Position numbers: made by a program. A stretch of 64,000 nt of DNA from Escherichia coli (GTDB lineage: Bacteria > Pseudomonadota > Gammaproteobacteria > Enterobacterales > Enterobacteriaceae): the NCBI RefSeq assembly GCF_001677475.2, contig NZ_CP012498.1; one strand, 5' to 3'. Within the stretch, counting starts at the first letter, position 1, and each line of letters starts with the position of its first letter. Shown piece by piece: positions 12,601-18,005 of this stretch.

Positions 12601-15600
12601 TGAAACCAGCTCCTTAGGAGGTGATCTTTTACTTAGACTGTAATTCCGTTGTTTCTTTTTCAGTAGATTCAACCTCACGATACCAGCGAGGATGGTGTTT
12701 CTTCGCCCAGCGTCGACTAACTTTCCCTTCAATCATACCTTTAATTGAACCTTTTACCCAAAACGCCATGTATATATGAATCAGAATGGCGTGAATCAGT
12801 ACAATAGCTGCTGTCGCGTGGATTAACAAACACCAACGGACTATGTTAATTGAGAAATAATGGGCAAAGTATGGCCTCCAGATAATAACGCCGGTAACCA
12901 GTAATACCAGAATCAGGCTCATGATGCTCCAAAACATCATTTTCTGCCCTGCGTTGTATTTTCCCACATCAGCGACGTTATGCTCATTGCCTTTAAGTAC
13001 ATCAACGATCCCTTTAATCCAAGGAAGATCCTGTTTATCTGGAATATTGTGGTATACAAAACGAACGAACATAAACATCAGCATGATGAAAATCATCACT
13101 CCGATAAACGGATGTAGAATTCGTCCCATTTGCGGTGTACCGAAGGTTTCAGTAAGCCATTGCAATGTTGGGAAGAAAAGCGCAATACCGGAAAGTGACA
13201 CCAGGAAGAAGCTTATTACCACCGTCCAGTGACAAGCACGGTCGATAAATTTGGTACGCAGAATCATGTTGCTTTTACTCATGACCGTTTTCCTTTTCAT
13301 CATCATCCGTCTCTTTGTTTGGGCCTACTCCCACGTAGTGGTAAATCAGCCCGGCAAAAGTGGCGATAAATCCGGCTGCGGAGAGTGGTTTTAAAATCCC
13401 CTTCCAGAAGTTTACTGGTACGGCGATTTTGGGGTCATCTGGCAGATTGTGGTAAAGAGATGGTTGATCCGCGTGATGAAGTACATACATCACGTGGGTG
13501 CCGCCAATCCCTTGAGGGTTGTAAATACCCGCGTTGACATAGCCACGTTTTTTCAACTGTGCCACACGAGTTTCAGCTACATTAAGCATCTCTTTTTTGG
13601 TTCCAAACTGGATAGCACCGGTCGGACAAGTTTTCACGCAGGCAGGTTCCTGACCCACGCTGACCCGGTCAACGCACAACGTACATTTATAGACCCGATT
13701 ATCTTCAGGATTAAGCCGGGGAATATTGAATGGGCAGCCAGCAATGCAGTAGCCACAGCCAATGCAGTGCTCGGACTGAAAGTCGACAATCCCGTTGGCA
13801 TACTGAATGATTGCTCCAGGTGATGGACAGGCTTTCAAACAACCAGGATCGGCGCAGTGCATGCAACCGTCTTTGCGGATCAGCCATTCCAGCTTATCGT
13901 TCTGGGTGGTTTCGCTAAAGCGCATCACTGTCCAAGACTTAGCGCTGAGATCTGTCGGGTTGTCATAGACTCCGTTGCAGTAACCCACTTCATCACGAAT
14001 ATCGTTCCACTCTGAGCATGCTACCTGACAGCCTTTACACCCAATACAGGTGGTTACATCAATTAGTTTCGCCACTTCTGCACGGTAATTCCGCGCCTGA
14101 GGCGGCGGCGTGATGTTGTTCGTCGCAGAGCGTTTTATAATATCTTGTGATTGCATAGCCATGAGTCACCTTCCTTACGCTCGCTCTATGTTGACCAGAA
14201 ATGCTTTATACTCCGGTGTTTGCGAGTTCGCATCACCCACCGATGGCGTTAACGTATTGGCGAGGAACCCTTTGCGTGTGGCACCTTCAAAGCCCCAGTG
14301 ACAAGGAATACCGATTGTATCGACCTGCTTACCATCGATCATCAGCGTTTGCAGACGTTTGGTGACCACCGCCTTTGCTTTTATAAAGCCGCGCTTCGAC
14401 ATCACTTTCACCGTATCACCAGCTTTAATGCCTTTTTTGCTCGCCAGCGCCTCACCGATTTCGATGAATTGATCGGGTTGAACGATGGCGTTGAGCAGAG
14501 CATGTTTGGTCCAGTGGCGAAACAGTTCAGTAATGGAGTAAGTTGTTGCGATGTACGGGAAGGCATCCGCTTTACCCATATTGGTGATATCGTCATTGTA
14601 GATACGTGCAACTGGGCTGGATACAACATCCGGGTGCAGCGGGTTAGTACCAATAGGCGACTCAATGGGTTCGTAATGTTCCGGGAATGGCCCGTCGTTC
14701 ATTTTGTCGATGGAGAACAAACGCGCTACACCTTCCGGATTCATGATAAACGGACCAACACTGCTGCCCGGTTCTGCCTTATCATAGTCTGCGACATCCA
14801 TACCGAGCCATTTTCTGCCATCCCAATGCAGCAGAGCTCGTTTTGGATCCCACGGTTTTCCTGATGGATCTGCCGAAGCGCGATTGTAGAGAATACGGCG
14901 GTTGGCTGGCCATGACCACGCCCAGCCCGGTGTGCAGCCCAAACCATATGGATCACTATTATCACGATTTGCCATCTGGTTACCTTGCTCTGTCCAGCTT
15001 CCACAGTAGACCCAGCAGAAACAACTGGTAGAGCCGTCATCGCGTAACTGTGCAAAATTGCTGAGCTGCTGACCATTCTGGGCAATAAGCTGGCCTTTAT
15101 CATCATAAATGTCTTCAAGTGCCTGGCCATTTGCTTCACGAGCAATCTCTTCTGGGTGTGGGTCATATGGATCTTTATAATTCCAGGCAATATTCAACAA
15201 GGGTTGAGGATTCGCTCCGCCTTCCTGCTGATATAGTTCACGCAGTCGCATAAACAGGTGGCCAAGGATCTTTCCGTCATGCCAGGCTTCACCTGGTGGT
15301 TCTGCCGCAGCCCAGTGCCACTGCAACCAACGCCCGGAGTTAGCTATTGAACCATTTTCTTCAGCAAAGCAGGAAGATGGCAGGCGGAAAACTTCGGTCT
15401 GAATATCTGCCGGGGTTACATCGTTCATCTCGCCATGATTCTGCCAAAAATTGGAAGACTCAGTGGCCAGTGGATCGATAACCACCATATATTTCAGTTT
15501 GGAAAGTGCCCGAATTGATTTGTTTTTATCGGGAAACGCCGCCAGTGGGTTAAATCCCTGAACGATGTAACCATTGAGCTTCCCTTCGAGCATCAATTCG

Positions 15601-18005
15601 GTCTGAGTCATTACGTCATACAGGCGATCCCATTTAGGTAGCCAGTCGTAGCCCCAGTTATTTTCCACTGTTGCATTATTGCCCCAGAAACTTTTCATCA
15701 TGCTAACAAAGAATTTCGGAGTATTTTTCCAGTAATTGACCTCATTCACTCCTAAAGCAGGTGGCGTGATTTGCGAAATATAGGTCTGATAGTCTGGCTG
15801 TTTTTCCGACGGCAGCGGCATATAGCCCGGCAGGTTTGTCGACAATAAGCCAAGATCGGTATATCCCTGAATATTGGAATGGCCACGTAGGGCGTTAACA
15901 CCACCGCCTGCCATACCTATATTACCCAGTAGTAACTGGAGCATAGCAGCGGCGCGAATAATCTGTGCCCCGTTGGAGTGGTGTGTCCAACCCAGTGCGT
16001 ACAGGATGGTGGCGGTGCGATCAGGAACACAGGTACTAGCGAGAATTTCGCAGATTCGATTGAAATCCGCCACGGTAGTCCCACACAGTCGGTTAACCAT
16101 TTCTGGCGTATAACGCTCGACGTGAGTTTTCAACAAATTCCACACGCAGCGTGGGTGATTCAATGAATCATCACGCAGGGCATTACCCTGTTCGTCAAGC
16201 TGATAGAACCAACTTGATTTATCATACTGACGTTTCTTGTCGTCATAGCCGCTAAACAGACCGTCATTGAATTGATAGTCATCACGTATTATAAGGCTGG
16301 CGTTCGTGTAATGGCGCACATAGTCGTGCTGCACCCGGTTGTTCTTCAGCAGATAACGGATTACTCCGAGCAGGAATACTGTGTCTGAACCAGCGCGTAT
16401 TGGCGCATACAGATCGGCGACGGCGGCGCTACGGTTAAAGCGCGGGTCTACCACCACCACGGTCGCGTCGTTTTTAGTTTGCGCTTCGACCACCCATTTA
16501 AAGCCTACCGGATGTGCCTCAGCAGCATTGCCGCCCATAATAAGTATTACGTTGGCATTTTTAATATCGACCCAATTGTTGGTCATAGCACCACGTCCAA
16601 ATGTTGGTGCAAGAGCAGCAACGGTGGGGCCATGACATAATCGTGCTTGACAGTCGATAGCGACCATACCTAGTCCACGAGCAAATTTACCGTCAAGGAT
16701 CCCGGTTTCATTGCTTGCCGCTGAGGAACATAGCATGCCTGTAGTGGCCCATCGGTTGACAGTAACGCCCTGTGCGTTTTTCTCAATAAAGTTGGCATCA
16801 CGATCATCTTTCATGAGTCGGGCAATACGATTAATCGCATCATCCCAGCTAATACGCTGCCATTTATCTGCCCCAGGTGCTCGATATTCGGGATACTGCA
16901 GACGGTTTTTACTATGAATATAATCCAACACGCCAGCGCCTTTAGGACACAACGAGCCACGGCTCACCGGATGATCCGGATCGCCCTCAATATGGTAGAT
17001 ACTTTCTTTGACGTTTTTAGCTGTATCGCCAAGACTGTACATCAGCATGCCGCACCCTACTGAGCAGTATGTGCAGTTATTACGTGTCTCTTTTGCTTTT
17101 AAGAGTTTGTATTGACGGGTTTCCGCGTGAACGGAAAAAGATGATAAGAATCCGAGAGATGCAACAGTTGTTCCTGCCATACCGCCCGCGCAGATTCGAA
17201 AGAACTGTCTCCGATTGAACTCCATTTTTTCTCCAGCTTAAACTTAAGACATGAAAAAATATGGTTATTTTAATGTTAAATTATTTTATGGGCAATTAAC
17301 TTTTAGCCAAAATCAGTCTCCCCTTTCCCTCCATTCCCTTTGGTGATGTTCCGGGGGTAAGTAATATTCCGGTGAACTCATATTGACGCGTTTTTCAGAT
17401 GCGTCACTGGCGGTACATATGAACTCGCAGTGTGATGATAGTTGATTTATTTTGTAGAGCAGAGGAGAAGCAACTAGATACCGGAGGTTGACACTAAAGT
17501 ACTGAGTCGGGTGACCACTGCGACTTCCCCCTCTGACGAAGCGGTTTCCCTGCTGAAAAATGTCGGCAAAAAGGGGAAGCATCAGAAGGGGGGGACTCCG
17601 TCCGGCCAGTGAACCGTGCCGCACTCCGGACAGTACATACCGCCGGCGCTGATACCGGCAAGAATGGTCGCAAACACCCACTCCGTACAGCGGGCAATTT
17701 CCGGATAGCCTTCGTCATCAACACGAACAAACCAGAAGACCATCTTTTTGTTTCCCACATCCACAAAGAACGAAATATTCAGGTCTGCGCAGTACTTAAC
17801 GGCATCGTCAAAATTATCAAAGTGCAGAATTCCTGTGAACTGTCCCGGGAATCCTGGAGATGAAACTCTCTGAGAAGGAGGTAAACAGGATGACTAAAAA
17901 TACTGGTTTTTCCCCCGAAGTCCGTCAGCGGGCGACCCGTATGGTGCTGGAAAATCAGGGCGAATATGACTCACAATGGGCAGCAATTTGTTCCATTGTG
18001 TCAAG

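Follow-up and report, generated by a model that had tools for sequence, protein, structure and literature searches.

Among the systems described so far, the nearest to the one treated here are the respiratory formate dehydrogenase N (FDH-N) of Escherichia coli, encoded by fdnGHI (PDB 1KQF/1KQG), and those bacterial formate dehydrogenases in which selenocysteine (Sec) has been replaced by cysteine. E. coli itself possesses the Sel machinery and its own Sec-type Fdn and Fdo enzymes, and in our own translation K-12 fdnG and fdoG contain one in-frame TGA each, at codon 196. Bacterial Sec-to-Cys conversions are concentrated in FdhA, and some of the Cys forms keep remnants of structures resembling the selenocysteine insertion sequence (SECIS) (Zhang, Romero, Salinas, Gladyshev 2006, PMC1794560). 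Moreover, genetic evidence shows the natural Cys-type FdhF of Pectobacterium atrosepticum to be active (Finney et al. 2019, PMC7384014), and Cys-dependent enzymes are predicted for over half of the species that contain formate hydrogenlyase (FHL) (PMC7384014). Here we describe an fdnGHI operon with a cysteine codon in place of the Sec codon, located in a stretch of 64,000 nucleotides of E. coli DNA (contig NZ_CP012498.1, here referred to as the window).

We give a probability of roughly 85% to the reading that this locus is the complete fdnGHI operon of a selenium-independent, Cys-type FDH-N, which reached a conjugative virulence plasmid as a Citrobacter-like import of 4.68 kb.

The catalytic subunit and its cysteine

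The gene of the catalytic (alpha) subunit, fdnG, lies at 14175..17225 on the minus strand. Its open reading frame (ORF) consists of 1016 codons with an ATG start and zero in-frame stops, giving a protein of 1016 aa. The product matches the NCBIfam equivalog TIGR01553 (formate dehydrogenase-N alpha) over residues 4-1015 with 1542.9 bits, where the cutoff is 814.2. When all PDB chains were searched with phmmer, the top match was E. coli FdnG (1KQF_A, 1760 bits), with residues 1-1016 of the query aligned to residues 1-1015 of the chain. At the N-terminus, a twin-arginine (Tat) signal peptide encoded at 17124..17225 (minus strand), MEFNRRQFFRICAGG...SVHA, corresponds in the alignment to E. coli FdnG's Tat leader, MDVSRRQFFKICAGG; the twin-arginine motif RRQFF occupies residues 5-9, and the cleavage site is a predicted one.

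The translation contains the segment MVAIDCQARLCHGPTVAAL, whose first and second cysteines are Cys192 and Cys197, respectively. In the phmmer alignment with 1KQF_A the active-site region is free of gaps and Cys197 stands opposite the X that represents Sec196 (QARLCHGPTV over QARVXHGPTV, or, in a slightly wider view, QARLCHGPTVAA over QARVXHGPTVAS). The MAFFT alignment with K-12 fdnG and fdoG likewise pairs E. coli X196 with C197 of the window. Residues C197, H198 and R447 of the window protein correspond to U196, H197 and R446 of E. coli FdnG, and the [4Fe-4S] ligands C51, C54, C58 and C93 (C50, C53, C57 and C92 in E. coli) are conserved as well. The codon of Cys197, the molybdenum (Mo) ligand in place of Sec196, is TGT at 16635..16637 on the minus strand (ACA on the plus strand), not the in-frame UGA that a selenoprotein would have there. 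A preliminary description of this DNA had placed a TGT at plus-strand positions 16635-16637, within a 1016-codon ORF lacking in-frame TGA, and had assigned the cysteine to the column of the catalytic Sec; the former proved exact on translation of the ORF, and the latter agrees with both alignments. A sequencing error hiding a TGA, which had been named as a possible objection, is excluded, because the identical TGT is present in an independently sequenced plasmid, the gene matches 17 complete E. coli genomes at 99.8% identity, the exact protein is found on 863 contigs, and the close orthologues have TGT or TGC at this codon in every case.

It might be argued that Cys197 is not the metal ligand at all, that its column is coincidental and that Mo is held by another residue or by none. 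The sole point in favor of this is the second cysteine, Cys192, five residues upstream, while the motif QAR-x-[U/C]-H-G-P-T-V is aligned without gaps, His198 and Arg447 are conserved, and among Cys-type homologues Cys197 is invariant whereas position 192 varies (C, S, T or N). We regard this alternative as very improbable and continue to treat Cys197 as the Mo ligand.

Cys192 is encoded by TGT at 16650..16652 (minus strand) and forms a CxxxxC pair with Cys197 in the sequence CQARLC; E. coli has Asn191 at this column. Of 72 Cys-type loci, 50 have cysteine at this position; none of the 10 Sec-type loci does, the residue there being Asn. Cys192 might protect Cys197 or act as its redox partner.

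A relic of the SECIS element

In addition to the codon itself, we considered the RNA element that would be needed for its recoding. At the Cys codon the Rfam model RF01989 (SECIS_3) matches positions 16582..16640 on the minus strand, inside the coding sequence, with 44.7 bits, which falls short of the gathering score of 63; the model marks four pairs as bad, and GUC in the loop has become CUC. K-12 fdnG scores 84.3 bits against the same model, with all pairs accepted.

Two other measures were tried and set aside. The 59 nt after the Cys codon fold with -21.9 kcal/mol (z = -3.5), the genuine E. coli SECIS has z = -0.8, and Cys-type relatives range from -4.6 to +0.7, so minimum free energy does not discriminate; therefore the Rfam covariance score and the conservation of synonymous sites were used instead. 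Counting canonical pairs in the SECIS_3 structure gives a mean of 12/16 for Cys-type and 14/16 for Sec-type genes, and is a weak test because the conserved peptide HGPTV...FGRG forces part of the stem.

Synonymous sites separate the two types clearly. In ten Sec-type genes, drawn from several genera, the 59-nt segment exists in just 2 variants, and identity at third codon positions is 0.97 in the segment versus 0.67 in the flanking 161 codons. In 17 close Cys-type genes the corresponding values are 0.52 in the segment and 0.56 in the flanks, by which no RNA-level constraint on the former SECIS segment was detected, and all of the 71 Cys-type 59-mers differ from one another. By both measures, 44.7 bits against a threshold of 63 and no synonymous-site conservation, no functional SECIS follows the codon. 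The Cys-type genes carry a decaying SECIS relic and not a maintained RNA element, and with a UGU codon the remnant would be irrelevant to decoding. The preliminary description had suggested checking that a SECIS-like hairpin is absent: a functional SECIS is indeed absent, but a hairpin is not wholly so, as the degenerate 44.7-bit remnant stays in place.

The almost invariant Sec-type SECIS (loci L076-L086 and L002:1984-2042 of our genome scan) is shared by Escherichia, Enterobacter, Buttiauxella and Tenebrionibacter, with the rest of the gene free at third positions. Such a near-invariant segment can serve as a clean positive control wherever RNA-level constraint within coding DNA is studied.

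Distribution of the Cys-type enzyme

Cysteine is found at the Sec column in all of the 120 best full-length homologues, 107 of them recognized by a first pattern and 13 by inspection. We also scanned genome loci, taking one genome per species and the 80 best loci. At least 70 of these have TGC or TGT as the Mo-ligand codon, and 9 have TGA, the TGA loci belonging to Escherichia, Enterobacter, Buttiauxella, Tenebrionibacter and two further Enterobacteriaceae and being 68-71% identical to the query.

In a search of 5.8 billion proteins, the window protein fell into a 90%-identity cluster of 1,562 members, whose named members come from Citrobacter, Kluyvera, Klebsiella michiganensis, K. grimontii, K. 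pasteurii, Pantoea ananatis and Escherichia, and the exact protein was found on the 863 contigs mentioned above. Outside the cluster, amino-acid identity is 88% for Kosakonia, 80% for Gibbsiella, 78% for Photorhabdus and Rahnella, 77% for Dickeya and Pectobacterium, 74% for Proteus and 71-74% for Pseudomonas and Azotobacter. Judged by these matches, the window enzyme is a member of a widespread Cys-type FDH-N clade of Enterobacterales and Pseudomonas.

Because Cys-type FDH-N forms a large annotated clade and Sec-to-Cys conversion in FdhA has been published, a Cys-type FdnG is not unusual in itself. Such cases are well known, and RefSeq already gives the gene its correct name, where its label reads "fdnG: formate dehydrogenase-N subunit alpha", with no selenocysteine exception.

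Operon partners

Directly downstream of fdnG and on the same strand are fdnH and fdnI, which makes this a complete fdnGHI operon. The gene order is G-H-I, and all three subunits score above curated family cutoffs. The beta subunit gene fdnH (fdxH), at 13275..14162 on the minus strand, encodes a protein with four [4Fe-4S] clusters and a C-terminal membrane anchor, which matches TIGR01582 with 467 bits (cutoff 335). It is 84.7% identical to K-12 FdnH, with 17 of 17 cysteines conserved. The gamma subunit gene fdnI (12629..13282, minus strand) encodes a di-heme cytochrome b with a quinone site; its ORF could be extended to 13306, the annotated start being 13282. FdnI matches NF007558 with 434 bits (cutoff 339), while the FdoI model stays under its own cutoff, and the protein is 81.4% identical to K-12 FdnI with the heme ligands H18, H57, H155 and H169 conserved. 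Among the neighboring genes, neither fdhD nor fdhE is found beside fdnGHI, on the plasmid or in Citrobacter; in E. coli both stand beside fdoGHI.

Origin of the block and its boundaries

The window is part of a conjugative virulence plasmid of about 225 kb, of the Shiga toxin-producing E. coli (STEC)/enterotoxigenic E. coli (ETEC) type, found in E. coli and Escherichia cryptic clade I. The members of this plasmid family are conjugative and 167-242 kb in size, for example pCFSAN004181P of strain GB089 and the plasmids of strains 10290 and HH091_1A. At 99.8% identity and 100% coverage, fdnG is present in 17 of 5,426 complete E. coli genomes, on a plasmid each time, and it is carried by 9 PLSDB plasmids, all of them conjugative.

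By blastn against Citrobacter, the imported block extends over 12627..17306 (minus strand) and comprises fdnGHI, 81 bp before the ATG and about 2 bp past the fdnI stop. Its DNA is 92.8% identical to the chromosome of Citrobacter sp. FDAARGOS_156 (locus L003) and 91.9% to that of C. youngae CCUG 30791 (locus L017), and against both chromosomes the homology ends abruptly at 12627 and 17306. At the protein level, the window FdnG is 95% identical to the chromosomal Cys-type FdnG of Citrobacter, versus 70.3% to K-12 FdnG and 68.4% to K-12 FdoG, and its gene is 71% identical in DNA to K-12 fdnG. In a neighbor-joining tree, the window protein stands beside two Citrobacter sequences within a Cys-only group of Citrobacter, Kluyvera, Pantoea, Kosakonia and Klebsiella, with E. 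coli FdnG and FdoG on a separate branch. These comparisons support the view that the 4.68-kb block was copied from the chromosome of a Citrobacter-like enterobacterium. The earlier suggestion that the operon had come from another lineage onto a backbone rich in insertion sequences (IS) was thus well founded, both in these identities and in the IS fragments found on the two sides of the block, and the alpha-subunit phylogeny proposed as a check points the same way.

The values also bear on a different history, in which a local TGA-to-TGT mutation, or a sequencing error, arose in E. coli's own fdnG or fdoG and the gene was then copied to the plasmid. TGA and TGT are a single base apart, and a weak SECIS_3 match is still at the right place. 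Nevertheless, the window gene has 71% DNA and 70% protein identity to K-12 fdnG versus 93% and 95% to the TGT-bearing Citrobacter genes, the same codon is present in independent assemblies, and the near-invariant 59-nt SECIS of Sec-type genes (2 variants in 10 sequences from several genera) is not in the window gene. We consider this history extremely improbable and hold to an import from a Citrobacter-like chromosome.

Downstream of the block, at 11871..12578, are IS66-family fragments (ISEc23-like transposase and TnpA), recognized by annotation and sequence matches. The upstream flank at 17307..18070, defined by sequence matches, is a mosaic of an orphan segment of 233 bp (17307-17539), a pO157-type fragment that usually adjoins IS91 (17540-17832), an IS1203 fragment (17834-17998) and the end of IS100 istB. 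In the orphan segment we found no ORF, and neither beyond the plasmid family nor among 85 related loci did it have a match; the upstream context of the true donor may have left no other trace.

In Citrobacter, the Cys-type fdnGHI adjoins a divergent frmR-frmA pair (L003:6248-7674 and L017:1001-2493), a linkage that is not kept in other genera. frmR encodes a formaldehyde-responsive repressor and frmA an S-(hydroxymethyl)glutathione dehydrogenase, and the endpoint of this pathway is formate.

Upstream region and selection on the operon

Chromosomal Cys-type orthologues have in common a promoter whose -10 element is TA(T/C)AAT, and a 25-bp dyad, ATAACC-N13-GGTTAT, at a fixed position of -88/-89 from the fdnG ATG. 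It was found in Citrobacter, Kluyvera, Phytobacter, Lelliottia, Kosakonia, Entomohabitans, Pantoea allii and Pseudocitrobacter (at L014:3912-3936, and at the same position in L003, L008-L011, L013, L015-L019, L044, L054 and L070). The dyad overlaps the -35 region, in orthologues reading TGGTTT...TA(C/T)AAT, and such a position is typical of a class II activator. On the plasmid, the junction 17306/17307 falls inside the dyad, so that unrelated DNA takes the place of the left arm, the right arm changes from ATGGTTTAT in orthologues to ATTGCCCAT, and the poor -35 TGGTTT becomes TTGCCC. The result is a candidate sigma-70 promoter by consensus match at 17267..17295 (minus strand), within the retained 81 bp, with -35 TTGCCC, a 17-bp spacer and -10 TAAAAT. 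We infer that the plasmid copy moved from activator-dependent to constitutive or read-through transcription.

No candidate for an operon-linked regulator was obtained in the chromosomal relatives. The genes found upstream vary with each genus examined: Citrobacter has frmR-frmA and rclC, Kosakonia a class A beta-lactamase, Kluyvera an FtrA-like AraC regulator, and Klebsiella a two-component system. Since the neighbors differ between genera, the regulator binding the dyad is probably a global one. Set against the consensus sites of FNR, NarL, ModE, ArcA, Fur and IscR type 2, the dyad shows a loose likeness to the last only (CC-N13-GG), on which we make no claim. In the plasmid promoter, there is no recognizable counterpart of the Fnr/NarL region of K-12 fdnG, the K-12 upstream sequence having been compared by eye.

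The coding sequences bear the marks of selection. The dN/dS ratio relative to Citrobacter is 0.06-0.08, and between the window and pCFSAN004181P there are 9 nucleotide differences over fdnG, fdnH and fdnI, 9 of 9 being synonymous. By these substitution patterns, selection on the operon is purifying.

Several points weigh against the reading as a whole. First, the nearest sampled Citrobacter copies are still 7-8% divergent in DNA, and because this divergence remains, the true donor species is not yet sampled. Second, just 81 bp of native upstream DNA are retained and the dyad at -88 is destroyed, so the operon may be poorly expressed; in addition, the promoter consensus scan gave 8 sites versus 8.5 expected in shuffled sequence. 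Third, according to Axley 1991, as cited in PMC7384014, replacement of Sec by Cys in E. coli FdhH reduces turnover strongly.

The second point leads to the alternative that the operon, brought in by IS activity, is cargo that is silent or in decay, deprived of its regulatory region and useless to the host. At 17306 the junction takes away the dyad's left half and everything upstream of it, the neighborhood is rich in frameshifted and truncated transposase genes, and the candidate promoter is statistically no better than chance. On the other side, each plasmid copy found (17 genomes, 100% coverage) has the three ORFs intact and the exact protein recurs on the 863 contigs; all nine substitutions between the two plasmid lineages are synonymous, where neutrality would, by our own rough estimate, make about three quarters of them non-synonymous; and the -35 change is in the direction expected when activator independence is gained. 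We therefore consider silence or decay of the operon unlikely, and prefer to regard fdnGHI as a maintained operon.

Proposed function

The mechanism proposed here is based on the E. coli FDH-N paradigm and on the conserved ligands. Transcription would start probably from the residual or improved sigma-70 promoter, or come from read-through, the native dyad having been cut off at import. FdnG would be translated by ordinary decoding with Cys197, without SelA, SelB, SelC or SECIS; because the Mo-ligand codon is an ordinary Cys codon, recoding is unnecessary. The host's molybdenum cofactor (Moco) pathway and the chromosomal FdhD and FdhE would supply FdnG with the bis-MGD (bis-molybdopterin guanine dinucleotide) and the sulfido ligand. 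FdnG and FdnH would be exported via the Tat pathway and anchored through FdnH and FdnI, and periplasmic formate would be oxidized at Mo. Electrons would then pass through five Fe-S clusters to the two b hemes of FdnI and to menaquinone on the cytoplasmic side, adding to the proton-motive force.

Formate:menaquinone oxidoreductase activity, which in FDH-N is inducible by nitrate and anaerobiosis, is predicted for the plasmid FdnGHI, whose native promoter region is truncated, and the host would gain a third respiratory formate dehydrogenase, a selenium-independent one. The preliminary description had expected the enzyme to be made without the Sel machinery, and an ordinary Cys codon in a complete FdnG accompanied by its FdnH and FdnI partners speaks, at the level of sequence, for the same conclusion.

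Possible role in the host

Formate oxidation is documented as a fitness trait of enteric pathogens (PMC10470504). Because it contributes to the gut fitness of such pathogens, it is plausible that the fdnGHI operon is an accessory fitness factor. Possible gains over the two Sec-type respiratory formate dehydrogenases of the host are selenium independence, different regulation and different oxidant tolerance.

A more specific proposal, which we hold to be doubtful, is that the plasmid copy is a deregulated, selenium-independent FDH-N that aids gut formate respiration in hybrid STEC/ETEC and cryptic-clade-I strains, with Cys192 protecting or redox-gating Cys197. If so, the benefit would be felt under selenium shortage, or in situations in which repression or damage affects the host's own Sec enzymes, and the loss of the dyad together with the better -35 would make expression independent of an activator.

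On this reading, a third respiratory formate dehydrogenase, one that would need neither selenium nor SelABC/SECIS, is present in some pathogenic E. coli lineages through a transmissible virulence plasmid. A selenium-free FDH-N that is naturally maintained in E. coli could also be convenient for enzymology or engineering. We found no literature on the plasmid fdnGHI operon, and in Okuno et al. 2023, the paper describing the C-I virulence plasmids, formate dehydrogenase and formate are not mentioned. Plasmid carriage in hybrid STEC/ETEC and cryptic-clade-I strains, the sharply bounded Citrobacter-like import, the severed dyad and the clade-specific CxxxxC pair appear to be undescribed in the literature searched, and are incremental; the knowledge of the enzyme family is unchanged by them, and their significance is modest.

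Other genes in the window

The window contains several further genes of the virulence plasmid, and enterotoxin, enterohaemolysin and other cargo genes are found across the fdnG-bearing plasmid family. The heat-stable enterotoxin STa gene (sta1) lies at 21232-21465 on the minus strand, ending in ...NTFYCCELCCNPACAGCY, about 4 kb upstream of fdnG, with IS21/IS100 and other IS fragments between the two. The enterohaemolysin operon occupies 45697-52820; the ehxA ORF (46196-49207) scores 2289 bits against the EhxA model, and the flanking ORFs fit ehxC, ehxB and ehxD according to the annotation of related plasmids.

At 28864-34889 the virulence plasmid has a second island of metabolic cargo, a complete 3-hydroxybenzoate/gentisate catabolic cluster. 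It comprises a LysR regulator, a PcaK-like aromatic acid transporter of the major facilitator superfamily (MFS), gentisate 1,2-dioxygenase, a fumarylacetoacetate-hydrolase-family protein, a maleylacetoacetate-type isomerase and 3-hydroxybenzoate 6-monooxygenase. Moreover, a polysaccharide-type cluster on the plus strand (1547-11737) adjoins the IS66 debris beside fdnI. It includes several glycosyltransferases, an MsbA-like ATP-binding cassette (ABC) exporter, two phosphotransferase-family genes, a nucleotide-sugar dehydrogenase and an "alginate export family" outer-membrane protein for which there was no NCBIfam match.

Comparison with known systems

Compared with E. coli FDH-N (1KQF/1KQG), the window enzyme is alike in gene order, subunit lengths, Tat leader, [4Fe-4S] ligands, active-site His and Arg, the 16 cysteines that hold the FdnH clusters and the four histidines that bind the FdnI hemes, and the alpha subunits align from end to end. 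It differs in having Cys197 for Sec196 and Cys192 for Asn191, in an alpha subunit of only 70% identity, in being plasmid-borne and in the absence of a functional SECIS from the gene (44.7 versus 84.3 bits).

The chromosomal Cys-type fdnGHI operons of Citrobacter, Kluyvera, Kosakonia, Pantoea and the Klebsiella oxytoca group are closer, sharing the 90%-identity cluster, the IDCQARLCHGPTV motif, the operon structure and the ribosome-binding region; examples from Citrobacter are WP_199947010.1 of FDAARGOS_156 and the copy of C. youngae CCUG 30791. The chromosomal operons keep the 25-bp dyad and further upstream DNA, whereas the plasmid copy is cut within the dyad and flanked by IS.

The FdhF of Pectobacterium atrosepticum (PMC7384014) is likewise a Mo-formate dehydrogenase that occurs naturally in an enterobacterium and has Cys in the Sec column. 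However, FdhF is cytoplasmic and belongs to the formate hydrogenlyase-2 branch, while the window enzyme would be a periplasmic respiratory FDH-N; moreover, the Pectobacterium host is entirely without Sec machinery, which E. coli possesses. Finally, the Sec-to-Cys conversions in FdhA (PMC1794560) resemble our case in that a Cys form exists in a Sec-decoding organism and a relic hairpin follows the Cys codon, but the Cys form in the window would have arrived by plasmid-borne horizontal transfer and not by conversion in place.

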